58,899 nucleotides of DNA, filler included, from Sphacelaria rigidula (GCA_964200075.2; 9 parts of 9 records of this genome joined end to end with filler, not necessarily neighbours in it), one strand, 5' to 3'. Shown: positions 14,320-58,835, numbered from the whole stretch's first letter. Notes: a model not told the origin generated them from the letters alone. Made by a program: numbers and translations.

Positions 14320-15985
14320 CGGTCCAGCATGTATAACGTACGGAACATGTCCAGAAAAAAAAATTCAGCCATGGCTGATGAGGGTGTATGGAAGACAGTA
14401 AGGAAAGGGCAGGGTGGAATAAGGTGGGGAAGCGTAGTCGAGAACGTATGGAGGGATATGAGAGGAAACCAAGAAGAGATAATGTCCATAGGTGAATGTG
14501 AGAAGATTGGAAAAACAAAAAAAAGGGGGTAAGACAAAAAGTGAACGAGGAAGAGCACCCGAAGATATACCGGGGGTTGAAACATGGGATAGGGATGAAA
14601 ACGTATTTGCACGCCCCGATGACTACCCGAAAAAATTCACGGTTCGAACGAATTAGAGTTCATACAGGTTGACTCCTCATGAATGTTGAGTGCGAATCAT
14701 GTACCAAAGAGTCATCCGGTACGAATCACAGATGGTGGAAGTTGTACGTTCAAGGCCATACCGCACGAATCATGGACTGATAATGTGTATACTTCGGGTT
14801 GTGTAACACGAGTCAGGATTGGGAATCACGTACGAATCACGGTCCATGTGCGAATCACTGGTGGGAAACACATACTCATGATTCATCCTGCATAAACTGA
14901 AGGGTGGGGAACATGTACCTATGATTCATCCGTGAAAAATGGAAGGTGGGAAACATGTCCCGTTCATTCACTTCTCGCGAATTGCAGGTGGGAGGGATGT
15001 ACGTGTGATTCACGCCCTATCAAATGATAGGTGAAGACCATGTACCGACGGCTCATACCGTACAAGTGCATGTGCCATCCCGCATGAAGCAAAGGGCGGG
15101 AAACATGTACAGTTTATTCATCTCGCACGAACTACGCGTGGGAGAGATGTACATGCCGCTCACGTTGTATGAAATGACATGTGATAAACACGTGACGACA
15201 ATTCATACTGTGCAAAATGCATGAGGAAAAACATGTACAAGTGATTCATCCCGCATAAAGCAAAGGGGATTGATGTGTGTGCCCATGATCACGCCGTGTG
15301 AGAGGAAGGTAGGACACATGTACCTTCGACTGTGTACCGCAGAATCACGAACTCGGAATGTGTACACTCCAATTAGTGTCGCACGAATCACGAACCTATA
15401 ACATGTACAAATCACAAATAATGGACGAATCGTATGATTGATTCGTCCAAATGTTGATTATGAGTTGGATCATGATTTTATTCGTCCGAATCGTGAAAAG
15501 GTTGGAAGTAAGGTCTCGGGTGGGGGACCTGGACCTGCCAGGGAGAAGAAAGAGATATAGCGATAGTAGGGTGGAGGAGGTACATGCAAGGAATTGCCCC
15601 TGCGGCAAAGCAAAACAACAGAGAGTAGAGTTCATGTAGCGGGAGAATGTGAAGTACAGTATACAAGGAAGAACGGGACGTGTTGGAGGGAGAAATGTTG
15701 GAAATAAACGAAGTGAGATCAAATCGTCAGGTATATTAGATTGTAGCGAGAAAACGGTCCCTGACCTATGAGATAAATTGTGGCGGCCACAGGCGGGGAA
15801 ACAGGAAGGGGATGAGATATGTCAACGGTTGTGTGTCATGTATGGAAAAACCGTGACGAGCGCCCAAATGTTGAAGGTGTCTCTATTAGAAGTAGGAACT
15901 GTCCTCCGCCTCAAGAAGGATGGACAGTCAATGGTCAAACGACTAAGGTGAGCAACAAATTTTTATCCCCCCTCCCTCCCCTCCT
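14320..15985 (+). mobile_element. Decayed LINE 3' portion (ORF2 C-terminus with CCHC knuckle) ending in a C-rich tail; interrupted by a TIR element
   Basis: Fragments read VWKTVRKGQGGIRWGSVVENVW, KIYRGLKHGIGMKTYLH, then [insertion], then RVGDLDLPGRRKRY..CPCGKA..(frameshift)ESRVHVAGEC..VWKNRDERPNV. The C-x-C...H-x4-C pattern resembles the LINE ORF2 zinc knuckle. Related copies lie at 28395-28615 and 29905-30062. Confidence 0.7.
14636..15497. mobile_element. Non-autonomous TIR DNA transposon filled with a degenerate ~42-bp tandem repeat, nested in the LINE
   Basis: Termini TTCACGGTTCGAACGAATTAGA vs reverse complement TTCACGATTCGGACGAATAAAA. Internal units resemble GGTGGGAAACATGTACCTATGATTCATCCCG. 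The LINE-like coding sequence resumes immediately after the element. Confidence 0.75.
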
Positions 15986-16015
15986 TCCACACACACGGTG
16001 AACACATTTTTCTAA

Positions 16016-16133
16016 ATCCGCGTTTTTCCACACGCGGGGTGGTTGTACCGACTTTTTTTTTTTTTTCATGAATGGAATCAATATCTCGAGCGTGCGACTT
16101 CGTCATTTTCGGTAACCATGGAGGTCTGAGAAT
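16016..16133 (+). repeat. ~120-bp dispersed direct repeat (second copy 17449-17568)
   Basis: CACGCGGGGTGG..GTACCGAC..GGAATCAATATCTCGAGCGTGCGA..CGGTAACCA(T/C)GGAGGTCTGA occurs twice. Confidence 0.75.
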
Positions 16134-16872
16134 GCACGATCGGCGCAACCCGTGGCCGCTCCAGTACGGGGCGGAGCCCCCCGGATCTCACCCATCGGGG
16201 GGGACGTGCTCGGGCGCGTCAGCGCTCCCCGGTTGCCGGATGCGGCTCACTTTGCGTAAGTAACACTACTCACTTCTCACAGGAGTGCTTCCGGCGAAGA
16301 AACTGGCTCTCGTGGTGACCACCGCAACACAGCGTGGTCGCTGGCATCCATGGTGTCAAGTCCGATGGACCAACCGGGGTCCGCCTCACCTGTCCAGCGA
16401 AAGCTGTTCGTCTCTTTGACGTTTAGTTCGAGGTAGCTTCTTTCGTGGGGTCGGTGCTCCTTGCCCTGCCCACACTCTTTCTTCTGCGCGGTCCAGAGGT
16501 GCTGCCCGTCGGGTGACCGATCGGGGTCGGGTTCGCGGGGGTGGTGTGGGTGAGCGATGTACTGGTGCACTTGCCCGCATGATCCTCGGGGGCTGCCAAC
16601 GGTCTCTCCTTTGTTAGAGCTCCCATCTGTGAGATTCCTGAGCGTCGGTTGGGCTAGAATAGTCTTGGTTCGCACCATGCTGCGCTGGCTGGCGGCCCGT
16701 GTACGCATGCTCGCGGGGAAAATTGAGCTCGCGGGGTTCCCGCGTGGACGGAGCTAATATTGAGGGGGCCGGGGAATCAATATAACGATCGTTCCGCAGA
16801 GGATAGCTAATATTGAGGGGGCCGAGGAGGAACAACTCGTTTTCGTACCTGTTGTATGCCGTATAAAAAATC

Positions 16873-17441
16873 AGCCTGGTCCGGCAAAAACTCGGCGTGC
16901 TCCGTCCCGGCTTTGTAGGGACGGACCCCCGATGGGGTTGGCGTCGATTGACGATGATGCTGAGAAATACGCCACTTACTACGTAAGCTACGCAACCAGG
17001 TTACCGTTTTTTTTGCGCGCTTGCTTTTTTATTTTTGCGGTCACCATGATGATGATCGAGCTGGATCATGTTGTGCGGTGTGGGAAAACCTCAATTCCGC
17101 ACAAAGGAGATGATCGTACTACGTGGTGTCGAAACGGTGAGACACCCATGAGGCAGTGTATCAGCCATGGCTGTCTCTGGAAGTGGCGATACCAGAAAAT
17201 GAAGCAACTCATTGTAGGCTGTTATCCAAATACAAGATACTCAGTAGGCCTCGGTCCGAACCATCTCAGCAGGATGCAGCCCACCCTTTATGCGACTCGC
17301 CGAACACACCACGGTGCTTCACGCTTGGTGGTTGGATGCGAGCCTGGTCTAGCGAAAACCCGGCGTGCTCCTTCCCGGCTTTGTAGGGATGCGAGGTCAA
17401 TGATCTTATGACTATGGCTTGCATGATTACGAGCACACCCC
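16873..17441 (+). mobile_element. Family A non-autonomous retroelement (~570 bp), apparently full length, with a C-rich tail
   Basis: Collinear with 23283-23878. A ~49-bp segment at the 5' end is repeated at 17341-17389. The 3' ~70 nt are shared with the LINE tail. Confidence 0.75.
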
Positions 17442-18303
17442 TTCTAACCCCGTTTTTTTCAACACGCGGGGTGGCCGTACCGACCGTGTTTTGTCTTTTT
17501 CGTGAACGGAATCAATATCTCGAGCGTGCGAGTTCGTGATTCTCGGTAACCACGGAGGTCTGAAAATGTTCTCCACCCTCGGGGGTGCTATCCTCCGTCA
17601 TCATCTGTACCCGTGTATGTCGAACCTTGGGAGTATTTCCGTCGCCCATGGTGAGACCGTTCGATCATGTTTCTCCAAAGAAGTCATGGGGAAAGCAATA
17701 TTCAGACTATGCAGCAAATGCACGGATCGTTGCAAGTGTAAGCATCTGAGTTGAGTGAAGACAGTGTAGATGATGTATATGTTGGAGATGATGTATATGA
17801 TGAAGATGAATGTGACACCCATATGCAGACTTCATTTATGTGTATATGCCTGTATCGCAGGATGTGCTCTGTGCAAGCGAGGCGAGTCTACCAGCTCAGA
17901 CTTGAGAGCGCAAAAAAACAATATTTATGGATGAAATGCGTCAGCCCCGAGTGCAGTGAGTCTTGTCGGTTTTCGAGTGACTCCGTGTGTCAAACACGAC
18001 TTACTCTTGACGTGGTTTTAATATACAAGTACTTCTGCAGTGAACATGCCTTCTCCTTGTCAGCGTGTGAAAGTTCACCCCAATGGTCAAATGACTAAGG
18101 CAAGCAACAAATGAGTACGCCCCCCCTTCGCCCCTTCCTCCCCCCTATATCCACCAGACTGATAAGCTTGTTTTGTATGTGTATTTTCTCTCATAGCGTA
18201 GAAATAAATATTTCGCGATCCTCTCCAGTTCGCGCTGTACGGCAGGCAGTTGCCATGATATATTCCGAATGAGAGCAGGGTGTACGTGTTCGCGCGTCGA
18301 CAG

Positions 18304-18408: not shown

Positions 18409-19340
18409 GCACGTGACGAGATATTTTTGTTTCTTCATCAACACACCAGTCCAATCGAAGAGCTCCGACTCGCGGTCAAAAAACGAGTCCAGGGTTATGT
18501 GTTCGCTTTTTCCAGGGTGTCGTTTCTTTTTCCCGCTGGAGGATAAGGGTCAACCACGAGTGTAATGGAACGACGTAGTATCATTATCCAAATCACAGTC
18601 TCGGGAGGGAGGATTTGATCCAGTCATTCTCCACTAGTGTTTGTGCGGGAATATAACGTGAGTATGTACGAAGCTTAAACCGTTGAAATACACGCTGGTT
18701 TATTGAAGAGGCCATGTTTTATTGTGAAATAAAAAATATTCACATGGGTGGCAAGCAGTTTCTATCTGATTCTGTAATCGACTTCGTAATTGTCGCGTGG
18801 CCGACATTTGGACGAAGGAAGGAAGGCAAGGGTACTGAGCATCATGGCAATATATCAACGTGTATTGTAGTGTAAAACGCTGCAGCCGCAGTATCCGTCT
18901 CCTTCTCCCCTGAAAAGCACAGGTCCAGCGGATGATATCGTAGGTAGCAAACGTGTACTTGACTTAATGTAGCCTTCTAGTGAAGGACAGTAACATTATT
19001 TTCAAACATGCTCGAGACTCATGAAGATCACCTGCGAAACCGTAAAGAAGTAGTACAAAGTAGCGGAGGTATGAGTGAAGAAGCTGGACGAGGTATCCTG
19101 TAGTTAGACCCCTTGCTTCAGCGTCAATATAATGCCCTCTTCTAATATATTTGGGGCAAACCAAAAGGATCCTCACTCCGTTTGATGAAGGGGTCTGGTC
19201 CTCTGGGTGGGCGGAGCCTTGGCTGTTGTCCGCAAGAATTAAGAACGAGCGGTGCTTATCTCGTTCTCACTTGACACTGTGAAAAACAGTACAGAGTGCT
19301 ATCCAGCACTAGTACACCTCCACTCCCCTCCGACAGTCCC

Positions 19341-19568
19341 CTTTGAGGATTGGCATCGGATGGCGATGACGCTGTAAAGCACACCACTCACTGCGTGAGC
19401 TAGGCGACCAGGTTGTCGTTTTTCTTGTCTCCATCTTGAAAGTGATGCGTGGTCGATGGTCAAACGACTAAGGCAAGCAACATATGAGAATGCCCCCCCC
19501 CCTGTGATGGTGAGGCACCCATGAGGCAGTGTATAAGCTGTGGCTGTCTCGGGAAGTGGCGATACCAG
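19341..19568 (+). repeat. Stack of family A fragments and a LINE tail separated by C-runs; truncated by the contig end
   Basis: Family A internal piece 19341-19428, LINE tail 19430-19503 ending in C10, and a family A piece 19505-19568. Confidence 0.7.
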
Positions 19569-19668: not shown

Positions 19669-19917
19669 GTGCTCCGTCCCGGCTTTGGAGGGATGTGAGG
19701 TCAATGGTCTTATGACTATGGCATGCATGATCATGAGTACACTCTAGCCCCCGATACTCCGTCTCGAAAGGGATGCATAACTAAGGCGAGTAACAAATGA
19801 GAACCCCTCCCCCCCCCCCTCACCCCCGCTCCGTCGCTCCGTCTCGAAAGGGATGCGTGGTCAATGGTCAAATGACTAAGGCAAGCAACAAATGAGTACG
19901 CCCCCCCCTCACCCCCT
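19669..19917 (+). repeat. Three tandem poly(C)-tailed 3' ends (one family A, two LINE type)
   Basis: 19669-19752, 19757-19828 and 19836-19917, each ending TGAG(T/A)AC followed by a C-tract. Confidence 0.8.
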
Positions 19918-19935
19918 GCGCGCGCAACCGGACAG

Positions 19936-22900
19936 GCTCGAAAAAAGTGATGATATAGACATCGTGGTAGGGGAATGGAGAGCAGAGGGCGACGCTGCAG
20001 GGGGTGGTGGTGCAGCAACTCCTTCGCTGGAGCATGGTGATGATATGTCGGCGGTACGGGAGCTGGAGTACATGCACCCTGTCAAGTCGCGTTTCCCCGG
20101 TATGCCGTCGCACGCGAAGACGTTCAAGACACAGCGGATTCACTACGATGCCGATAGTGATCGGCTGAACTTGATTGAGGAGAGTCGATTCAAGGGGATT
20201 CCCTATGCGAACTACTTTTCAGGTATTTTTCGTTTTTTCTTCTTCCAAGTTACGGTATTGTCGAAAAAATGACGAAGAAAAGAGAGCACTGCCTTAGAGC
20301 TACTATTTTGTTTTTTTTGCATGAGTATGATTTTGTTCTACTATAATAATAATAATGATGATGTTTGAACAAATATGAGCGAAGACAATTTTTGTTGTGC
20401 TCTTATTCCGTGGTATACGTAAGTCTCAGTGTTTCACTTATGTGAAATACGGTGTAATAGTCATTATGCATTGTTCCGCCACCAGAAAATTATTTGTTGT
20501 TCGTCTGCAAGAGAAGGGTTGTTTTTTACGTCAAGTGTGTCATGGGAAGACTTCTGGGTCGCAGCAGAGCCTTGGACTACATGAAAGTGTGTACGTGTGT
20601 GTACGTGTGTTCAATCGTGTTTTTTACGGCTTGCCTCGGCATTGCTGGGTCTGTGTATAATCAACCGATCACGTTTTTGTTTCATGCCACTGTCTCTTAT
20701 CTATGTGTGTGTGTGTGTTTTTTTTTCTCTCTCTCGCGCGCACGCCGCTGCGCGTTCGTTGTTTCATGGCCATCCAAAATCATAAGTGCACACACATTGG
20801 GCTGTTCATCCGGTGCAAGACGCCACCGACGGTGACGATGATAGTGCACATGCTATGGACGGACACCGCGGTTCGCCCCGCGCGGGTCGAACGGCACTAT
20901 TTTCGGAGGTCTCGGTGGCGGTGGGAGTAAGCTGGAAGAAACGAACCGTCTTGCGCGGCAAGGTGCGTACTGTACCATTCTGGCAAAGCATCAACGCATC
21001 CCTCTTCGTCTCCGCTTCGTCTGTCTGTCGCCCTTGCTCCCGCATCTGCACTATGAAATCAGCACGTGTTATTGGGCATCATATGTCGCGTGGGCATGCC
21101 ACGATATGTCACGCTGAAGTGCAATGTTGGGCTGATTTTGTGCGCTCTATATACATGAAATATTAAGTCCTACGGGTTGCACATGACGGAACGCAGGGCG
21201 GATATGCGCAACGCTGTCGACACAAGAACGGCCGCCTGGGGCGAGAGAGACAAAACTTGCCGTACACGTGCTGTTTTTTTTCTTCCTTTTCCTCAAGAGA
21301 TGTGTGTCGGGAAAAGGGGGAAGGAGAAACATTGCAAGGGCAGGTCGAGTAGAGTATACTCAATACTCAGTATTTTTTAAGAGTCATACTTTTAGTACTC
21401 AAATTTTGAGTAGATTATTGGAAGCCGTACTCAACGTACTCGAAATTTGAGTAGAGTATTTGAGACCATACTCAACCTACTCAAAATTTGAGTAGAGTAT
21501 TGAGGTCATATTCAAGTGATACTCTATACTCAAGTATCACTGAGAGTGCTTACTCGAAGTTTGACTAGAGTATTTGAGGTCGTACTCGACCTACTCAAAA
21601 TTTGAGCAGAGTATTTGAGACCATACTCAACCTTTTCAAATTTTGAGTAGACTATTTGAGACCATACTCGACCTACTCAAAAACTGAGTAGAGTATTGAG
21701 GTCATACTCAAGTGATACTCTATACTCCAGTATCACTGAGAGTGCTTACTCAATATTTGAGTAGAGTATTTGAGACCGTACTCAACGTACTCAAAATTTG
21801 AGTAGAGTAGTGAGGTCGTACTCGACCTACTCAAAATTTGAGTGGAGTATCTGAGGTCGGATCCGATGTACCGAAAACCTATAACTTCGACTTCGATATT
21901 CAAGTTCGTACGCAAGATACTCAAACTCGGGTAGAGGAAGTACCGAGGTATTTCTAGAGGTGCCTACCCATGATGAGTGTTGATTCAAGGTCAAACTGTC
22001 TTGTCAAACCGTAGCCAGTAGAGTCGCTCATTTTGATAATACCTACTCGATTCCTCGAGTACTCGTTTACTCGATGATGATGAGTAGCGCTCTGTACTGA
22101 AAGTGATACCGAAGGCGTTAAGAGGTATCCAGTATGAAGTGCCGTAGGTGGGGGCTGGTGAGATGGGGCGCTGGGGCAAGTAGGTTCGTTCACCTGCGCG
22201 CTTCTTGATTTTTTTATGGCCATCATTCGCTCGTACTCCTTGTTGGCTGTGATGTAATGCCACCCATCTAATTGATGGCCATCGTTCGCCCATGTATTCA
22301 ACATAGTCTGTAAACTGACGTCACGAAGTCGCCGACTATCAGGGGTACTCACCATACCCAAGGAGTACTCTATACTCAAGTATTACTGAGAGTGCTTGCT
22401 CAATATTTGAGTAGAGTATTTGAGACCATACTCAACGTACTCGAAATTTGAGTAGAGTATTTGAGGCCATGCTCGACCTACTCAAAATTTGAGTGGAGTA
22501 TCGAGGTCATACTCAAGTGATACTCTATACTCGAGTATTACTGGGAGTACTTACTCGAAGTTTGACTAGAGTATTTGAGGTCGTACTCGACCTACTCAAA
22601 ATTTGAGCAGAGTATTTGAGACCATACTCGACCTACTCAAAATCTGAGTGGAGTATTGAGGTCATACTCAAGTGATACTCTATACTCAAGTATTACTGAG
22701 AGTGCTTACTCGATATTTGAACAAGTAGAGTATTGGAGGCCGTTATCAAAATTTGAGTAGAGTATTTGAGTTCGTACTCAACCTAGTCAAGTTTTGAGTA
22801 GAGTATTTGAGGCCATACTCGATCTACTTAAACGTCGAGTAGAGTAAACACTTGAGTATTTTACTCGAGTACTCTAAAGTACATACTCTACCCGACCTAC

Positions 22901-24908
22901 CCTTGAAACATTGCACCATGGCACGCGGTTTTGGATCGCCCGGACCTTTGTTGGTGTTGTTTTCGGTGGGCGAACCCAGGTATCGAAAATTACGCTTGCT
23001 CGGCACGCTGAGCATGCTTGGTATTGTTAGATGGATATGTTACATCTCTTGCTCGGGTGGGCGACTCACTACTTGCTCCATCAGCCCTTATCAACTACTT
23101 CACCGTGCCAGGCATGTCACAAGTGTGTATGTTACATGTTTGTGCCAGTGCCTTCCGGCTTCTTGGGGGGTATGTACGCCATCGCTGCGGCGCCCGTAAA
23201 TTAGGCGGGTGATTGTTGTCATGAACCTTGAATTATGTGATGGGATGTTGGAACCCCACCCCCCTCCTCACTTCCCTCCATTAGCCTGGTCCGGTGAAAA
23301 CCCGGCGTGCTTCGTCCCGGCTTTGCAGGGACTGACCCTCTACGAGGTTGGCGTCGCGTGGCCATGACGCTGTATAACGCACCACTCACTGCATAAGCTA
23401 GGCAACCAGGTCACTGTTGTTTGTGGCGCGCTTGCGTTTTTTTTTTGCGGTAACCATGATGACGGTCGAGCTAGACATCATGTTGTGCGGTGTGGGAGAA
23501 CCTCCATTCCGCGCGAAGGGGATGATCATGCTACATGCTTGTTTAAATGGTAAAACACCCGTGAGGCAGTGTGTAAGCCATGGCTGTCTCTGGAAGTGGC
23601 GATGCCAGAAAATAAAGCAACTCATCGGAGGCTGTCTGTCATCCAAATGCAAGACAATCAGTACATTTCGGACCGAATAATCTTAGCAGGATGCAGCCCA
23701 CCCTTCACGCGACTCGCCGAGCACATCACGGCGCTTCGCGCTTGGTGATGGGTTGCGAGTCTGGTCCGGCGAAAACCCAGCGTGCTTCTACCCGGCTTTG
23801 TAGGGATGCGACGTCAATGTTCTTATGACTATGGTATGCAAGATCATGAGTACACCCTTCCCCTTCCTCACCTCCCTTTCGTTTTTTCCGAGGTCTACGG
23901 TGTAGCGTTGAATAGCTGCGCGGCTGTTGAATACACGTGGCGGCAGCGTCGAAACACCGCGTACAACACTATCTACTACATAAACTTGAGTGACATGGGA
24001 GAAGTGTTTATTTTCGTCTCGACACTTATTTTTGGCTGACTGCATGTCCCCCCCCCTTCCCAACCTCTCCCTTCCCCTCGGCGCCCTCTACACGACCGCG
24101 GCAGATTGAGAAGCAGACGCTCGCCGAGCACGGAGAGAGCCTGCAGCACTGGGCCACGGAAGCTGCCGTTGCTTGTAGATCATTATTCAAGGATGACATA
24201 TCTAGCCATGCTGACGAACAGAAGGCCAACAAAAATAACAGTCTCAGTACTACAGCGCCCCCGTCAGAAGATTCAGCAGAAGATAACGACCCATACGTCG
24301 AGGGTGGAAGATATCCCGACAGGATTTCTAGCGATGATACCGATGGTTTGGGGTCCGCAGGGGGGGGCATTGCTAGCGACAATTCCGCCAGCGCAGGCGC
24401 GGTAGTCACACCTACAAGAAATGACCAGAAATTTGAGGGAGATACGGGATATGTCAACACCGCGGTCGCCTCCATCAACAGTAACAACGAAGGCCAGCAG
24501 AGCACGCAAGAGGGACCCCCTCAGCCTAGCCAGACAAACTCCCAGGCCCATGCAGTTTCAAGAGGCGACACGGTTTTTGATAGCTGCCACAATGACAGCG
24601 AGCATGAGGGCAAAGATCTCGTCGGGGGTTCTCCCAAATCCAGAGTGGGTGGTGCTGTAAATGATGGCGATGACGTCGGGGGCATGGTGAGTGGCGGTGG
24701 GGTAATGTCCGGTGCGCCCAGCAGCAGCACTCATGAACATCCTACTGCTCTCTGCGGCGTGGGCAACAGTTGTGCTCCTCCGGGTGTCTCGGTGACCTTT
24801 TCCACAACGAAGAAAATAGACTGGGCCCGCATGATTCTAGGAAGGCGTTTTCGGGAACCTTCCTGGTGGAGGCGCAACAAGCAGCATCGCGCCGGGTGTC
24901 GGCCGTGA
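19936..24908 (+). CDS. VASt (StART-like lipid transfer, LAM/Aster/VAD1-type) domain protein, 3' part; exons 19936-20222, 20787-20962, 24105-24908 (stop)
   Basis: The spliced translation EW..RELEYMHPV..KTQRI..EESRFKGIPYANYFS/VHTHW..VAVGVSWKKRTVLRGK/IEKQTLAE..W follows the VASt pattern (PY.DYF.V..RW; V.W.K....K..IE). Junctions are GT-AG and phases are consistent. Confidence 0.8.
21335..22905 (-). mobile_element. hAT-superfamily non-autonomous transposon, 1571 bp, in the VASt intron
   Basis: Perfect 8-bp TSD AAACATTG (21327-21334, 22906-22913) and TIRs CAAGGG(C/T)AGGTCG(A/G)GTAGAGTAT. It has long subterminal arrays. A central minus-strand peptide YSLGMVSTPDSRRLRDVSLQTMLNTWAND resembles the hAT C-terminal dimerisation region. 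Confidence 0.88.
21395..21850. repeat. Subterminal tandem array of ~41-bp palindrome-containing units (second array about 22365-22830)
   Basis: The unit TACTCAAAATTTGAGTAGAGTATTTGAGACCATACTCGACC alternates with a ~50-bp variant containing AGTGATACTCTATACTCAAGTATCACT. Confidence 0.9.
23283..23878 (+). mobile_element. Family A non-autonomous retroelement, second full-length copy
   Basis: Same 5' start (AGCCTGGTCCGG) as 16873, internal repeat at about 23758-23806, and C-rich sequence on both flanks. Confidence 0.75.
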
Positions 24909-26320: not shown

Positions 26321-26575
26321 GATAAAATGAAGCAACTTCTTTGAGGCTGTCACCCAAACGCAAAGCTGTAGTACGCTTCGGGGCCGATCCATCTTGGGGG
26401 GATGCAGCTCACCCTTGATGCTACTCTCCAAACACATCATGCTGCTTCGCGCTTGGTGATTGACTGCGAGCCTGGTCCGGTGAAAACTCGGCGTGCTCCG
26501 TCCCGGCTTTGTAGGGATGCAAGGTCAATGGTCCTATGACTATGGCATGTATGATCATGACTACACCCCCCCCAT
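26321..26575 (+). mobile_element. 5'-truncated family A copy between C-tracts
   Basis: Matches the 3' half of 16873-17441. It is preceded by a long C-run and followed by C8, about 60 nt before the MutS2 acceptor. Confidence 0.75.
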
Positions 26576-28036: not shown

Positions 28037-30638
28037 CGCGCGCGCGTACGTGTTCATGTGCGATTTTTATTTGATTGTCGCACTTTTACCGACCCCCCAG
28101 GGAACCAGCCGTGGTCACGTGGTTGACGTACCCGAGCCGAGATGAGGCAAAACTGAAACACTCGCTGAAGAAGAAAACAAAACAAAACAGAAGAAGTAGA
28201 ATAAAACAGAGTCGACTAGAAAAATGAAAAATAAGAAGACAGAAAGACAGGAATAAAAAAAAAAGCATGTGTGTGTGTGTGCAATATGTATATGTATATG
28301 TATATGTATTTTATTACTCGAACGGACGCCGTGGAGACGAGCTGTTGATGCCGCTCCTCTCCTGGGGGGGGTGAGGAAGTAGATGCACGAAATTGCTCTT
28401 GTGGGACAGCAACAGAGAGTGGGAGATGAGTGTGAACTAGTCAAAGGAGGAACGGGACGTGTGAGAGGAGAAGACATGCATGGAGGATCCAAACCAATGT
28501 GACATGAAAACGGTTGGTACGCTAGAGGGATAGCAACGAGAAAAAACATCACTGTACGATTAGATAGATGGTGGCCAGAAACAGACGGCTAAACAGGAAA
28601 GGGATCAGATATGTAAAAAAAGGTTATTGTGTACGAGCTGATCCAGCCAAGAGTTTCTATCGGCGATTCAACAGTTACGCCCAGCTTAATATCAGAAGTT
28701 AAAAGCTGAAACTTTGACCGGAGATTTTTGTTATCAATACGCGGAAAGTAGCTCAAGCAAAGAAAAAGAAAATAATAAGAACACAACGTCAAAAGTAAAA
28801 TGAAATCTATGTGTGTGTTGTTTTGTCGTCCCATCTATTCTGGACGCCGATCTACACCGTTCGCTATATGTGGACGCACCAGCCGGGGTCACGCAGGAGG
28901 AAGGTCGATACTGGAGCTTTTTATTTTTTTATTTCTCTTTAGTACCCCACCTTCCTTCTGCGGTGCTTGCCTTTCTTATTTTTCATCGCGAAAGGGGTTC
29001 AGCAGTCCCTTTCCCTCGTCGACCGTCAAGTCGACATTCTATCTGAACGAAAATAATGCCACAGCTCAATTTTAAGAATATATAAAATTCTATTTCTTCC
29101 ATTACGCATTTTCAATTTGATTGCAGGAAATTCTCGTATAAATTCGGATCAAAGCTCCAACAATTGAGCTGCACATGCGCATGTTTTGTGTCACACCGCG
29201 GCAGCCTGGTGGTCCAAGTGACACAGGAGACTCCAGCAATGGAGAAGTGTAAAATGAGATGAGACTCCAGGTACGGAGGGCACGAGTTCGAATTCTGAAA
29301 AACAGGCATCGGTCGCCCCGGTGGCTCAGTTGGTAACCTCGAAACCTTCTGACGGTTGGGTCGTGGGTTCAAATCTCGGTACGATCTGGGATTTTTTCTC
29401 ACGCAATGTCCGACAGTGGAGAGCGACTATAATATGTCGTGGGTGCACAAAATTCGACTTGACGGTCGACGAGGGAAAGGGACTGCTGAACTCCTCTCGC
29501 GATAAAAAAGAAAGAAAGGCAAGCACCGCAGAAGGAAGGTGAAGTACTAAAAACAAGCAGAAAAGAAAAAAAAAAACTCCTGTGTTGACCTTCCTCACGT
29601 GTGATTCCCCCGGCTGGTGCGCCCACGTATTAAACCGTATGGTGTAGATCGGCGTCCAGAATAGATGGGAGGACAACACAACACACAACACTCATTTTGC
29701 CTGCAGCATCTGGTGACGTCGTTGAGGTCATATATTTATGCGGTACATGTTTTTCCTTTTCTCCTTAACGGCGATAGAGCGTGTATCACCATCACCAGAT
29801 TAATCTGCAGTTTTTACAGCGATATGCTTCCATCGGGCTGATGCGGGAAGCCTAAAAAGGTGTTGTGTGCCCGGGGTACGCACGTCTTTTTCAGGCTGGC
29901 CCACAGCTCGTGATGCGTGGGGAAAACAACGTGACGAGCGTCCATGTGTTGGACGTGTCGGCTCTACTCGGAGTAGGAACAACGTATGCTCCGTCTCGAA
30001 AGGGATGAGTGGTCAGCAGTCAAATGACTACGGCAAGCAACAAATGAGTACGCCCCCCGCCGCCTCTCTGTGTATGTAGGTACGGCATGCAAGATCGTGA
30101 GTACACCCCCCCTCTCTCTGTCGTTGCTTTTGTGCTGCCCCTTTTCCCCCGTGCCCCCCTCCCCACTTTGTTGTTGTTATTGCTGCTGCTGCTGCTGCCT
30201 GCTGCCTTTTCTTCTAGGTTGCAGAGCGTTTGGAACTTCCAGCTTTCGTTGTGGAGCGGGCACGAAGCCTCCTAGACGAGAATACACGACAGGTGATGAA
30301 AAATAGGTTAGTCGAGTCATGGTCCTCCACTTTTCTTGTTTTGTTTTGTTTTATTTTTCGTCTTGCTTTGCCGATGCGTCAACAGCCATCATATGTTTTT
30401 TTTTCTTGTTTTTTTTTCTTGTTTTTTTTTCGCCTCTATGGGTCTTTTTTTGTTTTGATGCTGCTGCACCGTGGAGCTCCTCATGTAGTTTCGATTAATT
30501 TGTATCTTCAATACCCGGCGGTTCGTATGAGGATGACATACAATGAGTGAGGGGATATCTAAACGAGCAACTTCGTGCCGTGGTGATGGTTATCGTTGTT
30601 GCTTCTGTTGTAGGACTAGGAAGAGACGTAGGATTAAC

Positions 30639-32622: not shown

Positions 32623-33901
32623 TCCCCCACCCCCCACGCGCCCCCCCACCGCCGACAACGCCACACACACCAAAAAAAANNNNNNNNNNNNNNNNNNNNN
32701 NNNNNNNNNNNNNNNNNNNNNNNTTAATTAATTAANNNNNNNNNNNNNNNNNNNNNNNNNNNNNNNNNNNNNNNNNNNNCCGTCCCGGCTTTGTAGGGAT
32801 GCGAGGGTAATGGTCTGATGACGATGGCATGCATCATCATGGGTACCCTCCCGCCCCCCCCCCGCGTCTCCTTCACCTGCTGCTCTCTTTCTCCTTCCCT
32901 CCACTGGTTTTGGTCTCTTAACCTTACTCGTCTCGTCTTTTTTGTTTTTGTATCATGATTCGTTTGACTTGGATTCTGCTGTTGTCGTCGTCGTCGTCGT
33001 TGTTGATGTTCATGTTGGTATCGCCATTCTCCATTGTCGTCGTTTTGTCGTCGCACTGTCGTTACGGAGCTCCTGCCCAAGTACTCAAGCCCTCAAATAT
33101 ATAGCTAAGCCTTTACCTCCTTTGATGGCCTTGTCGGTTTCGTTGTGTTCTGCTTTGTTTAGATCTTGCATGACTTCCATCCTGGAAGCATGCAGAAGGG
33201 GTCTCCTGGCTGTTTTTTCACTTCTCAGTTTTCACTCTACTGTTGGGTCTGTTCTTTCCTTTACTCACATCTCACCATATTTCCGCCTTGTCGAGTTTCC
33301 TCGGCGAGTGTTCGGTTCACTTAAAAAGGGTACATGTCTACATATATTCTGCGACGACGGCCGGATTCCGAGCAAATAAGTTAGTAAACACCAATCGATC
33401 AATCAATTAGTCAATCACCCCATCATACACCCCGCTCCCCAACTAGTATTCTACTAATGCCGGGATACCTCTCCCCCCTACAAAAAGTGCGCCGGAGACC
33501 GTCTGACAAACCGGCTGCGATCCCACTATTGGGCTCGTTTGCAGCAATTTCGCCCACATGAGAGATGTGTAGCAGTCCGAAATTAGCAATAACGCCCAAA
33601 TAAGTAGCGTCGTGCAGCACGAAACCAGCTCTAACGGCATTTATGATCATTGCCTCCGCGCACTTTCCTGGCCGGTTCAGGGGAGGGGGTTATATCTCGG
33701 CAGCAGTCATTAGCAAGCGCAGGTATATTGGAACATGCGAACATCGAGTATACCGTTCCACAGGCGTGTTTCGAGAAGGACTATACGGAATGCCTCCTTC
33801 GCTGTGCGTCGGCCCTTCAACCCCGATCCAACCCCAGTGGATCCTCCAAAGGCATCTGACGTAACACCGTCCTATCCGTCCGGATTTCTTTTGCTGTACA
33901 G

Positions 33902-50954: not shown

Positions 50955-51429
50955 GTAGATTATGGGTTCCATTATATTGGTGCTACTGCTGTTGCTCTTG
51001 GTAGAGGGCAACAGCAGACCAAGCTTGTGATAAGCTCAGCTCCGACCGCTGAGGCGCGGGTCGCACGGTTTATGGCTGGGGTGCCACGTGCCGCGTGAAT
51101 GAACACGGGGCTTCCTGATGGGAGCGATGTACTCAGGCAGGATGCGTGACTCTCAGGACCATGCTGGTTTTCCGAAACTATGTTATGTGTGCAGTGTGTT
51201 CTCGTGTTCTTACGGCACCGCGCTATATACGCTGACACAAGGGCGTGCTGTGGGCGCTTTCGATGGCCGTGGTGGTCTTTGGGTGGCGACAGTCGTCTAC
51301 GCTTGTGTTTGGCCCGGCTCCGGGCTTTGACAATCGGATCGTGTGGTTCAGACTGGAGTCATAAGATCTGATCTTCGCACCAGGCGTTTTTGTTCAGATC
51401 CGTGGTGGAAATGTGCATAGCAAAGGGAC

Positions 51430-51655
51430 GAAATTCGACTCAACGGTCGATGAGGGAAAGGGACTGCTGGACCCCTCTCACGATAAAAAAATCAAGGCAA
51501 GCACCGCAGAAGGAAGGTGGGGTTCTAAATACAAACAAGGAAGAAAAAACTCCTGTGTTGACCTTCCTCCTATGTGAGCCCGGCTGATGCGCCCAGATAT
51601 ACCGAAGGGTGTAGACCTGCGTCCAGAGTAGATGGGACGACAACACACACAACCC
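51430..51655 (+). mobile_element. 5'-truncated SINE family B copy
   Basis: Collinear with 29450-29690, including the ACAACACACAC tail. Confidence 0.75.
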
Positions 51656-52444: not shown

Positions 52445-52518
52445 CCCAGCATTGTAGGGATGCGAGGTCAATGGTCTTATGACTATGGCATGCATGATCA
52501 TGAGTACACCCCCTCCCG
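52445..52518 (+). repeat. Family A 3' end at the contig start (similar copy at 32780-32863)
   Basis: GGGATGCGAGGTCAATGGTCTTATGACTATGGCATGCATGATCATGAGTACACCCCC. Confidence 0.8.
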
Positions 52519-55671: not shown

Positions 55672-58108
55672 GAGCGAGCGAGCGAGCGAGCGTGCAGGCA
55701 AGCAAGCGAGCAGGCAATCGCGGACAAGAAACAGTCCTCTGATTATGTTTTGCCATGATGATGCCACTGAGTCTCATGTGCTGTGCTATGCTTAGTGTAC
55801 GATAAAAAAAAAAATGGAAGGATCGATCGAACGCTTCTTGCGATTCGTTGCCGCTGCTTGCAATGCGTTCGAGCGTTGGGACAGTTGATGATGCTTCAAG
55901 GATCTACGTTATCTACACGCCTCCTAAGGTGATTCGGGCAAAAGTGGCAGTCAGGCCAGCAACGGCGTGACTTCTTACCCCCAGCTGTGAGCCTTTTAGT
56001 CCATCTTTGTTATGACTTGAATCTCTATCACATCTTGGGCCTCTCTGTTTTGTCTCCAAGTGAAGTGAATTAGTGTTACCTACAGGATGTGAATTTCCTC
56101 AAATGTGCTGTGTGTAAAATTTTATTGTCGTGTGCATTTCTATGAATTGGTGACGACCGTTGTGTTTTCGTGATTTCGCTCAACGATGAAGACACTCGTT
56201 CTGACTCTCCGCTTTTATCTGTTTTTTTTGTTTTTCGCTGTTTTTTTTTTTTATGAAGCTGGGTATTAAGGTATACGACAAGACAGGACAAATCGTCAGA
56301 ACGTTCCAGGAACGCGCTGATCCGGAGACTGATCCCGACCACGTGGTGACTCTATGCAGGCAAGATGATCTTGAGCTTTCTGGGGGTTGTTTCCATCTAT
56401 ATCGTCTATCTCTGTTTTTTTTTTGTGAGTAGCACTGCGATTTTTCTCCGTGTGCACGACTTGACCTGTACTTGTGATGATAAACGTGCTAGCGATGCGC
56501 GAATCCGGAGGTGCGACCGGCCTAAGCAGGCGAGTTGTTTGGTCGATTGGAACTGCCGACAGCGCCCGCGAATGGCAAAAACCAAGACGAGCAATGGAGC
56601 CCAAATTTTTCGACGACTTGAATTCTTTGTGATCACTTCCGCTCACCTAGTTCTCTCTCTCTCTCTCTCTCACACACACGCACACACACACACACCGTGC
56701 AATACTACTACCCGATGGGAAAAAAGAGCATGCCACGCACACACACTAGTCGACCAAAAAATGACTGGCAAGACCCAAACAAGGGCAACTCAGCCATAAG
56801 GTAGGTGGAGAAGGACATCATCCAGCTGCCGTCTGAGAAAATCTGAACCACTGGTTCAGCTTTGACCAATGTCTCTCCGGTAAGTTCTCGATTCTCATGG
56901 ATTACCCTACACCGTATTGCTCATGGTTTTACCGAAATCCGAGTGTATCTGAGAGTTCGTCTTCTGTGGTAATCACACGTAGGATCTTACTCCGAAGTCG
57001 GCGGGTCGTGATTTGCCTCTTGATGTTGTAACCCCCAGGGAGAGCGTTCGAGCGGGAGATCAGGTCATCATTTTCTGTTCTACGAAGGCGTTCTGCCATA
57101 ACTGCGCAGCCATCGTTGCCCGCAATCTGAAGGTGCCCGCGTCCAAGGGCGTTGAGACCAAACGGTCGGCTTTGGTGGCGCAACTCGCAAAGATGCCCAT
57201 GGGCGTCGATCCGACCCTGCAGGTGTGTGGGTTTGTGTGTTGTGTATGTGTGTGTGTTCCCGGAAAGAAGGAAATTTTTTGGAATTCGCTGTATGAGAAG
57301 ACAAGAATCAGTGCGGAAATGAGTGTGCTCTTTCCTTGTTTGGCCCTCTAGCCGCTTGACATGTCGTCTGTAGAAATCTCGTCTCTTGGCCAGCAAGATG
57401 AGACTCAGTGATAGACTGCGCAATCACCATCTTGCCGTGTGTCCATGGGAATCTACGTTGAGGCGGGCAAGCGGTTTTTGAAATCGGTTCGTCGAACGAG
57501 TTAGTTGAGACCCGGAGTTGGCCCACGTGGTCGTGGCCCACGAGGGGCACACATCTCCTTCCGGGCGTACTGGTACATGGTGCACCGAACGCGCCCGCTC
57601 AAGTAGGGACACAAGACTATTTCCCCGCATGTGCATACCGCACTAGGCTTTCAAGAACTTTCTGGGCGGCGCCCGCGGACGTTTTTTCTGACGTGATTAT
57701 TTAGACCATCGACGGGTTCCAGACTAGACGACGAATAGGTGGCTCGTTTATTATATAATCCTTTGCAAGGCAAAATCTTGACTAGAGGCTTGCTTGTTCA
57801 GTGGTTGTCATTCATACGTGTATTCTATGTACTCAGGTTCACATGCCCCCGCCCTCTGTCACCCCGTCCTGGCCACATGCCGTTTTTGTTTTTGACAGGA
57901 AACCATACCCTGCGGAGTGGCAGTTCACCACGCAAGCCTCGCAGATACCGAGCGCTCGGGCGTCGAGAAAGGGTTTCGAGAGGGTACCCTGTCCGTGCTC
58001 GCTGCTACCTCTACCCTCGGCGCCGGGGTAAACCTCCCGGCTGGGCGGGTCATTTTGCGGAACTTGAACGTTGCCGGGGGAGGTCTTAGTGCCACGAGGT
58101 ATGCGCAG
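53011..58108 (+). CDS. POLQ: Ski2-like DNA helicase domain of the POLQ/HELQ family; exons 53011-53121, 53910-54002, 54788-55048, 55404-55514, 56259-56359, 57039-57222, 57899-58108
   Basis: The spliced translation has motifs in order: IAVCTIEKA, VVDELHMIGDGGRG..LELLLTK, IGMSATLSN..LAEWL..DYRPVPL, DPDHVVTLC, VIIFCSTK, GVAVHHASL..ER..VE..FREG, AATSTLGAGVNLPAGRVI, YAQ. All phases are compatible. POLQ and HELQ cannot be distinguished without the C-terminus. Confidence 0.9.
54335..54695 (-). mobile_element. Second tRNA-derived SINE (head about 54695-54628)
   Basis: The minus strand begins GCCCCGGTGATGCAATAG (same GCCCCGGTG start as SINE B), with B box GGTTCGACTCC at 54644-54634. The 3' boundary is uncertain. 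Confidence 0.5.
55638..55715. repeat. (GCAA)n(GCGA)n tetranucleotide microsatellite
   Basis: Read directly from the sequence. Confidence 0.9.
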
Positions 58109-58835
58109 GTGGAGGATCCAGGCCCGATCTCTGACGAGAGCGTCGCATTTTTTTTTTCCTTCCTATTTTTCAAGTGATCGCGACAGTTTGTTCTTGAACT
58201 TAGTTTTTTTCTTAAGATTTGATATATATTTTCGCGATCGTACTATACATTTATTCAATTTTTCGGATTTTCCAACGTATAACGGGCAGCCACGTGTTTC
58301 CCCGCATCGCATGATGCCAACTTTATTTTCAATTTTTGTTCAGATTCAGTTTTCTTCTTCGTCGATGTAACCTCATCTCGTCATGCTCAAGGAGGCATTT
58401 TGTAGGTATTGGAAAAATTGGACGAAGAATATATCACTCTCTTGTTCAGAACGGGGCCACGCGCGAGGCTGATTTTTTTTTTTTTTTCCGTCTTCCTGCG
58501 TCTGTCGTTGACGACGTTTCGTTCAGTCTTGGACACAACTCGCAAACCGAAAGAAGAGGTGTATTGTCCGTGTTCGATTCGCAGCCAGCTTTTCAATGTT
58601 TGTTTCATTTGTGTCTGTTCGGTGTTCGTGTGTTATCGTTGTGTTTTGGCTTGCCTCTCGATCATTCCATCAGAAAGGATGTTGTGAGGGGCGTGGCTGC
58701 GCATCCTAGTGACGGATTCCGGGGGGTTACAGAGTAGTTGATGAGTGCGTTCGAACAAGCGTTGCTGCTTTCAGCGACGATGTAAAGCGGAATTTTGTGG
58801 AAGAAACGGCCCAAAGTACCCACCTACTATCGTAG

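Follow-up and report, generated by a model that had tools for sequence, protein, structure and literature searches.

A short (C)n-tailed retroposon of a brown alga with a LINE-like tail and an internal 49-nt repeat: a probable counterpart of Ectocarpus RTEX-N1

Family A, a short retroposon of about 570 nt from a brown alga, is very probably non-autonomous, relying on an RTE-X-type LINE to copy it in trans, and the counterpart of the Ectocarpus family RTEX-N1. Apart from a 49-nt internal repeat, called R here, it is mostly ordinary and represents no new type of mobile element. The window, meaning the whole stretch of 58,899 nt that was analysed, consists of nine whole contigs of 6,455-6,456 nt each, joined by spacers of the form N44-TTAATTAATTAA-N44, and it also holds family B, a LINE with a related tail. 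Positions marked q are positions within the family A element, counted from the first base of R. Public data entered as the assembled contigs only of the runs X1, X3, X6 and X9, counted at a likeness of at least 80% to the element; X3 is labelled 'algae metagenome', X6 carries a second organism label, and no run is on record as RNA. At 19880-20269 of the window lies an exon with 100% identity to a protein that bears the label Sphacelaria rigidula.

Copies, layout and coding capacity of family A

Two full copies, at 16873-17441 (569 nt, copy 1) and 23283-23857 (575 nt, copy 2), agree in 88% of alignment columns with MAFFT and at 82.8% with BLAST. They share their first base, their upstream flanks are unrelated, and both show the layout R(49)-body(~420)-R-tail-(C)n, with R at q1-49 and q469-517, just as the earlier note had described them. 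The 28-nt core of R has four matches in the window, against none expected from 100 shuffles, while scans of two sequence collections gave 0 matches to R in viral_contigs and 0 in genome_contigs. Copies in the window end in runs of C4-C9. In the public contigs, loose ends behind positions 17423 and 17427 have a consensus of at least 20 C, drawn from 324 and 604 contigs of X1 and from 302 and 537 contigs of X3. The features are collected in Table 1.

Besides the two full copies, nine further pieces of family A lie in the window, close to the ten or so truncated pieces that the earlier note had counted. Six of them bear out its view of 5' truncation, with genuine 5' junctions at about q45, q258, q271-276, q321, q539 and q540, most of which have a C-rich run directly before them. 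Five of the nine pieces are cut at a contig border, three by a contig start (19669, 32780 and 52445) and two by a contig end (19568 and 39234); since the contigs end there, these piece ends are assembly breaks and not 5' truncations.

Table 1. Features of family A and of the partner LINE in the window (positions counted from the first base of the window)
Feature	Position	Strand	Remark
R, 5' copy, first bases of copy 1	16873..16921	+	44/49 identity to 3' R
Body of copy 1, 419 nt, non-coding	16922..17340	+	T8, T6 and T5 runs at q135-164
Candidate degenerate extra R, ~43 nt	17298-17340	+	weak similarity
R, 3' copy of copy 1	17341..17389	+	second half, from GTGCTCCGTC, opens the LINE-homologous module
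LINE-like tail of copy 1, short C run at end	17390..17441	+	85-88% to the 3' end of the LINE in L001/L002 (34 nt)
Full copy 2	23283..23857	+	R at 23283-23331 and 23758-23806
Duplication of copy 2, C/T-rich	23260..23277 and 23860..23877	+	16/18 match; 3/1000 shuffles
5'-truncated copy from ~q321	26321..26569	+	complete R, tail, C8; C15 run before
5' body piece, ~q45-129, without R	19331..19413	+	followed by a T-rich stretch, then a LINE-type tail
Copy from ~q258-264 behind C11 run	19507..19568	+	cut by contig end
Tail piece	19669..19742	+	cut by contig start
Tail-only insertion, ~31 nt, just behind LINE tail	30082..30113	+	duplication not significant; 152/1000 shuffles
Tail piece	32780..32852	+	cut by contig start
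Tail-only insertion, 24 nt of tail and start of C run	39074..39100	+	flanked by 12-nt C-rich duplication
Duplication of the tail-only 39074 piece	39062-39073 and 39100-39111	+	12/12 match; 9/1000 shuffles
Copy from q271-276, directly behind the 39074 tail	39106..39234	+	cut by contig end
Tail piece	52445..52513	+	cut by contig start
Decayed, 5'-truncated LINE copy	14332..15984 (blocks 14332-14660, 15490-15984)	+	blastn 71-75% to L001/L002; tblastn E 9e-29, 7e-21; ends in tail and C run
Second decayed LINE copy	28365..30063 (blocks 28365-28632, 29924-30063)	+	similarity to LINE
LINE tail piece, 46 nt	18081..18126	+	100% identical to L001
LINE tail piece between two family A pieces	19429..19502	+	LINE similarity
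Short LINE tail insertion	19836..19916	+	97.5% to L001; 16-nt duplication 19812-19827 / 19901-19916
LINE tail piece at contig end	58838..58899	+	LINE similarity

Family A has no ORF conserved between its copies and no Pfam domain, in keeping with the non-autonomous element that the earlier note had proposed. Copy 1 has an open frame of 178 codons, whereas the longest one of copy 2 on that strand has 92 codons. Indels of 1, 1, 2, 1 and 4 nt separate the full copies, and their substitutions are spread 29/20/27 across codon positions, without bias to any of them.

The RNA searches were equally negative. ARAGORN found 0 tRNA genes, and Rfam at gathering score found nothing in the whole window. An Rfam scan of both copies, which the earlier note had put forward as a check, gave no family above chance: even at E values up to 10 there was no pol III RNA and no ribozyme, the families without a match including hammerhead, HDV-like, twister, hatchet, pistol and others. 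Two sub-threshold matches on the minus strand were taken as chance, one to SNORD60 in both copies (19 and 27 bits, with 42 needed) and one of 22 nt to a TMV pseudoknot.

A SINE in the strict sense has a pol III head derived from tRNA, 7SL or 5S RNA and no internal terminator of four or more Ts. ARAGORN and Rfam found no such head in family A, and both copies contain internal T runs: copy 1 has T8, T6 and T5 at q135-164, copy 2 has T10 at q155. Together, the runs of T8-T10 and the missing head argue against pol III transcription of the long form, and they agree with the earlier note, which had seen no pol III A/B boxes. One of the public runs, X9, is only guessed to be RNA; a single X9 contig of 1,055 nt holds 661 nt upstream of q1, which is no proof of transcription.

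The tail, the partner LINE and the course of insertion

A metagenome scan with a pattern covering both tail types returned two contigs, L001 and L002. L001 contains, on the minus strand, an open frame of 678 codons with an RVT_1 domain (E 2.8e-33); the frame runs into the tail and closes with a TGA stop 10 nt before a C8 run; L002 has the same arrangement with a frameshift. Because the frame reaches the tail, the family B tail is made of the last ~20 codons, the stop, six bases and (C)n, and the LINE is essentially without a 3' UTR. The relatives of the LINE ORF in the PDB are R2 and LINE-1 ORF2 proteins, and the nearest relatives named for it are unnamed Ectocarpus proteins with 58-73% identity. 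Some longer relatives combine APE endonuclease domains with the RT, and a C-terminal motif ending in VVNG and a few residues, encoded by the tail, is common to the Ectocarpus and more distant proteins. The label RTE-X for the partner is probable and is based on its (C)n tail, its relatives in Ectocarpus and the C-rich character of the duplications.

Family B shares its last ~70 nt with family A. Family A and the LINE resemble each other only in the tail module, from the second half of R to the end, at 79-88% over 34-56 nt and over a further 13 nt in R. The last ~80 nt of family A are homologous to a genuine LINE 3' end, which upholds the LINE-related tail of the earlier note; judged by its sequence, this tail is LINE-derived. 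No LINE with an A-type tail was found; in the LINE that was seen the tail is of the B type and departs from that of family A at ~12-21% of aligned positions.

Upstream of the tail module the resemblance ends, as no part of the body of family A matches the final 2 kb of the LINE, the part that the comparison covers. This result counts against a possible though unlikely origin of family A as an internally deleted LINE, whose head, R included, would stem from the 5' end of an RTE-X LINE and whose tail would be the LINE's 3' end, and which would use the LINE promoter. Such a promoter would suit an element in which no pol III-type head was found and whose internal T runs speak against pol III.

It is very unlikely that family A is instead the 3' untranslated part of a longer autonomous LINE, with full copies that are 5'-truncated at a hot spot. 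Since the A-type tail differs from the B-type, there may be a further LINE subfamily that has the A-type tail, and truncation hot spots do occur, as the frequent starts near q264 in the public contigs described below show. Yet both full copies begin at the same base behind unrelated flanks, the target duplication of copy 2 lies at that base, and the LINE as seen leaves hardly any room for a 3' UTR. Nor was an RT or endonuclease domain found by Pfam in any of the 264 open stretches of at least 75 codons across the window. Loose ends before position 16873 point the same way: in about half of the contigs with such ends the sequence is the stretch that precedes the 3' R, which fits ambiguous mapping, and no new common upstream sequence appears. 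The earlier note had held that longer copies reaching upstream into RT-coding sequence would turn family A into such a 3' part; the flanks proved unrelated, and the body is without LINE similarity over those last 2 kb. The Pfam matches in the window are one VASt exon, one Helicase_C exon and a sub-threshold DUF7451; the decayed LINE bodies of Table 1 were missed by the Pfam scan of open stretches and were found by tblastn.

Among the signs of retroposition are C-rich target-site duplications of 12-18 nt. Of the 8 junction pairs tested, 3 have a significant duplication, namely those of copy 2 and of the tail-only 39074 piece (Table 1) and that of the LINE tail at 19836, which matches in 16/16 positions (0/1000 shuffles). 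The other five of the eight pairs are not significant; among them, copy 1 has no detectable target duplication (405/1000 shuffles as good), and that of the tail insertion at 30082 is reached by 152/1000 shuffles. The 5'-truncated copies with intact 3' ends match the SINE hallmarks named in the earlier note. Together with the target-site duplications, they indicate linear target-primed reverse transcription.

Pieces of family A and of the LINE also stand behind one another in chains, each member following an older C run, at 19331-19568, 19669-19916, 30058-30113 and 39050-39234. Insertion into older (C)n tails explains this head-to-tail order without any tandem or circular RNA. The distinction matters for a retrozyme-like reading of family A, in which a ribozyme in R would cut tandem transcripts that are then circularised and reverse-transcribed. 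A direct repeat near both ends invites this reading, as do the curated RTEX-N1 of Ectocarpus, which 'can be present in tandem' in the part of the source consulted (PMC12477816), and public contigs that join the tail to a downstream copy, with a joint from 17441 to 17136 in 5 and 1 contigs. It is highly improbable all the same. At the tandem joints stand (C)n and C-rich duplications, which is what insertion into older tails should leave behind, no ribozyme family matched at E values up to 10, R alone folds no better than shuffles, and truncated copies with target duplications are the mark of the linear process. The terminal redundancy from which the earlier note had drawn a tandem or circular RNA, or self-cleavage, is not supported: the 3' R is internal, Rfam gave no ribozyme match, the chains are insertions into (C)n tails, and no observation pointed to circular RNA. 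Joints in the public contigs that 'go back to 16873' or 'skip about 469' were set aside as signs of full-length arrays, as ambiguous placement of the two R copies gives the same picture.

The element is extremely abundant in the public runs. At the stated likeness, 81,605 contigs of X1, 64,602 of X3, 92,672 of X6 and 4,473 of X9 aligned to it. Summed depth over the element reached 0.7-16 million, compared with ~70-1,170 in the X1 flanks; this ratio of 10^4-10^5 is not a copy number and means only that family A is extremely abundant. Depth over q1-264 is about 5-10 times below that over most of q270-541, and poly-C stands directly before position 17136 (near q264) in 476 contigs of X1 and 445 of X3, so that a short form starting at about q264 appears to be the commonest. 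The contigs break inside the element, which helps to explain why the assemblies of such algae are large and fragmented.

These observations fit a course of events in five steps. An RNA of ~570 nt would first be made, with pol III an unlikely polymerase for the full length in view of the internal T8-T10 runs. The last ~80 nt of this RNA, which comprise the second half of R with its hairpin, the GGTCAATGGTC hairpin, GAGTACAC and (C)n, would mimic the 3' end of the LINE RNA; the two ends are homologous, and by the example of stringent LINE/SINE pairs the LINE RT would recognise the family A tail. The LINE endonuclease would then nick C-rich DNA, and the (C)n of the RNA would pair with a run of G and allow target-primed reverse transcription, if the chemistry is that of other such elements. 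Reverse transcription would often stop early and leave the 5'-truncated copies that are seen, with a start favoured near q264 in the public contigs. Finally, old (C)n tails would themselves be good targets, and for this reason copies would pile up head to tail in the same orientation, the order found in the chains.

The 49-nt repeat R

The two R copies of one element agree in 44/49 positions in copy 1 and in 43/49 in copy 2, and other pairs of R in 42-47/49. For old copies, inheritance from a master and remaking in every cycle lead to the same values of within-copy and between-copy identity. The edges of R are sharp, as similarity beyond either end is not above that of shuffles; when the sequence after the 5' R was compared with the tail, and the two stretches upstream of the R copies with each other, no score exceeded that of shuffles. 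A small hairpin is found in the second half of R, which is part of the LINE-homologous module; its loop has 9 nt in family A and is GAAA in the LINE. The first half of R has no LINE counterpart. We read R as the first half of a ~100-nt 3' module that consists of R and the tail.

Support for the predicted secondary structure of this module is weak. A further hairpin, around GGTCAATGGTC, agrees with 9/9 aligned tails, and covariation in the predicted hairpins is found at 1/15 pairs. None of the sequences folds better than its shuffles; z lies between -1.75 and +0.63 for modules of 100-101 nt and is -0.73 and -0.44 for the whole elements.

The layout of a body between two copies of R recalls an LTR/TRIM or an Ngaro/DIRS-type element, of which family A could be a small derivative with R as its repeat, and Ngaro elements with split repeats of the type 'A-int-BAB' are common in Ectocarpus according to the curated set, as far as it was consulted (PMC12477816). 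This is the least probable of the origins considered here. R measures only 49 nt, its 3' copy is internal and followed by 52 nt and (C)n, and many copies are 5'-truncated. The duplications are C-rich and of 12-18 nt, compared with 4-5 bp for LTR elements and 0 bp for Ngaro. The tail, moreover, is LINE-homologous with (C)n and is not repeated before the 3' R: in copy 1, a comparison of tail and body gave nothing (133/300 shuffles as good). The same comparison in copy 2 gave one 19-nt match (2/300 shuffles), which copy 1 did not reproduce. A candidate degenerate R-like stretch just upstream of the 3' R was seen in all three copies compared that are not independent, and between 1 and 93 of 200 shuffles did as well.

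For family A as a retroposon copied in trans, the simplest account of the 5' R is perhaps that it is a structure inherited from a master copy, in which it would have arisen once by duplication or by an RT template switch; R might then not have to be remade in every cycle. RT template jumping, which the earlier note had also raised, may have been this one-off event in the master.

A further proposal, which we regard as unlikely, gives R a function. As a promoter inside the element or as a signal for processing, R would define the 5' end of an R+tail module of ~100 nt that suffices for mobilisation by the RTE-X LINE. The 570-nt family would have come about when the RT reached the 5' end of a longer template, switched over to a mini-RNA of this type and read on to the 5' end of the latter. 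A switch of this kind would explain both sharp edges of R. If the proposal is true, the RTE-X partners of brown algae build SINE-like families modularly around a pol III-independent head.

Comparison with known systems

No literature on family A in Sphacelaria rigidula was found, and the brown-algal genome preprint (10.1101/2024.02.19.579948), taken in part and without its supplements, contains no family-level description of it. The closest relatives by description are the curated RTEX families of Ectocarpus, known here from parts of one source. RTEX-1 and RTEX-2 are each described with one EN-RT ORF, (C)n at the 3' end and target-site duplications rich in C, and the portion of supplementary file 1 consulted has no other Ectocarpus LINE row with a (C)n tail (PMC12477816). 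Family B resembles them in its (C)n tail, its C-rich duplications, its APE+RT relatives and the shared C-terminal motif; it differs in that it is seen only from the RT to the 3' part (678 codons).

RTEX-N1_Ec32 is described as non-autonomous, with a head of unknown origin and variants of 607 bp (RTEX-N1a) and 604 bp (RTEX-N1b) that can be tandem; the 60-bp 3' end of RTEX-N1a is 83% identical to RTEX-1/2, and with roughly 6,000 copies RTEX-N1 is the most abundant family of the Ectocarpus genome in the same partly consulted source (PMC12477816). Compared by description, family A and RTEX-N1_Ec32 are alike in a size of ~600 bp, a non-autonomous make-up, a brown-algal host, (C)n and C-rich duplications. 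In both, only the last ~60 bp resemble (C)n-tailed LINEs, at ~80-88%, and both combine a head of unknown origin with high abundance and tandem occurrence. They differ in that the curators' notes, in the part consulted, mention no internal 49-nt repeat, that the host of family A belongs, by the protein label, to another brown-algal order, and that the abundance of family A looks far higher on a rough comparison.

RTEX-N2 has 188 bp, and its 3' 100 bp are common with RTEX-N1 in the same portion of the source (PMC12477816). R and the tail of family A form a block of 101 nt that corresponds in size to this shared 3' end. Poly-C stands directly before the 3' R in 6 contigs of X9, which suggests that R+tail mini-elements exist; the window itself contains no such mini-element, a difference from RTEX-N2_Ec32.

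In stringent LINE/SINE pairs, such as UnaL2 and UnaSINE1 of the eel or Bov-B and the ruminant SINEs, the two partners share a 3' stem-loop. Family A is similar in that the short partner carries the 3' end of the LINE, the assumed recognition signal of the RT. The heads of those SINEs are derived from tRNA and transcribed by pol III, whereas none of that kind was found in family A, and the tail that family A shares overlaps the coding end of the LINE and closes in (C)n.

NARTc and L1Tc of Trypanosoma cruzi share a 5' block, Pr77, and have a poly-A tail. There too the partner is without a pol III head, and a 5' block could define the 5' end of the transcript. The likeness is one of arrangement, as family A has no sequence or Rfam similarity to this pair and its tail is not the poly-A found there.

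Set against these systems, family A and its LINE place a pair so far curated, in the sources consulted, only in Ectocarpus in a second brown-algal lineage, where it is apparently massively amplified. What they add is modest: a presumed LINE recognition tail that overlaps the coding end, and, in the partner, a sharp-edged 49-nt duplication that repeats the first part of the 3' module. These additions bear on the origin of the heads of pol III-independent SINE-like elements.

One-sided orientation of the RTE-X-type pieces

All RTE-X-type pieces of family A, the non-autonomous retroposon of about 570 nt, and of family B, its partner LINE, lie on the plus strand. They number about 20, occupy about 12 separate places between 13113 and 58899, and share this orientation in all five contigs that carry them (3, 4, 5, 6 and 9); the sole minus-strand exception is a weak match of 50 nt. 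GC skew is positive over most of the window from 14 kb on, and two exons are recognisable, both listed in the table. The bias could stem from insertion into introns in the same sense, or from older tails being targeted in a strand-specific way.

Coordinates of features in the window
Feature	Position	Strand	Remark
VASt exon	19880-20269	+	one of two recognisable exons
Helicase_C exon	57896-58174	+	one of two recognisable exons
Weak RTE-X-type match	38787-38836	−	50 nt
SNORD60 matches	17162-17220; 23575-23633	−	sub-threshold
Tail-like stretch	23647-23665		body of copy 2
Mosaic	19331-19568
127-nt repeat	16010-16134; 17442-17568		two copies
41-nt unit array	21393-22846
Inverted repeat arms	28812-29034; 29454-29687		~230 nt
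Third copy of inverted repeat	51428-51651		different contig
G runs	37713-37940		up to 36 long
N gap adjoining G runs	37794-37803		10 N

Composite arrangements in and around family A

Within the body of copy 2, a 19-nt stretch is similar to the final 19 nt of the tail, a score reached by 2/300 shuffles, and copy 1 holds no clear counterpart. This stretch may be left over from an earlier tail; if so, it would hint that the family-A body is a fused chain. The two full copies also carry, in a homologous place, a match to SNORD60 scoring 19 and 27 bits against a gathering score of 42, which is probably due to chance.

The mosaic opens with a piece of the A body (about q45-129 of the element); after a T-rich stretch come a LINE-type (B) tail, then C11 and finally the short form of A. 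It represents either separate insertions in a chain or a variant element that fuses an A head with a B-type tail.

Other repeats in the window

Two copies of a 127-nt repeat, 85% identical, each stand a short way or immediately downstream of a different RTE-X tail: one follows copy 1 of family A with a gap of 0 nt, and the other begins about 37 nt past a LINE copy that ends near 15973. This repeat may be a further element or a favoured target. Elsewhere, 41-nt units with a short palindrome at their core form an array with spacings of 41 and 114 nt, in which a 66-nt register has 14 copies. The arms of the inverted repeat are 85% identical and, with the third copy, look like a separate repeat family, possibly one with terminal inverted repeats. 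The G runs may be long (C)n tails viewed from the reverse strand, or an assembly problem.

A coding tail at the 3' end of the LINE

In two metagenome contigs carrying the family-B LINE (L001 694-760, minus strand; L002 1130-1200), 10 nt separate the stop codon from the (C)n that follows it, so the tail presumed to serve in RNA recognition doubles as coding sequence. The C-terminal motif specified there ends in VVNG, and both Ectocarpus and more distant relatives conserve it.
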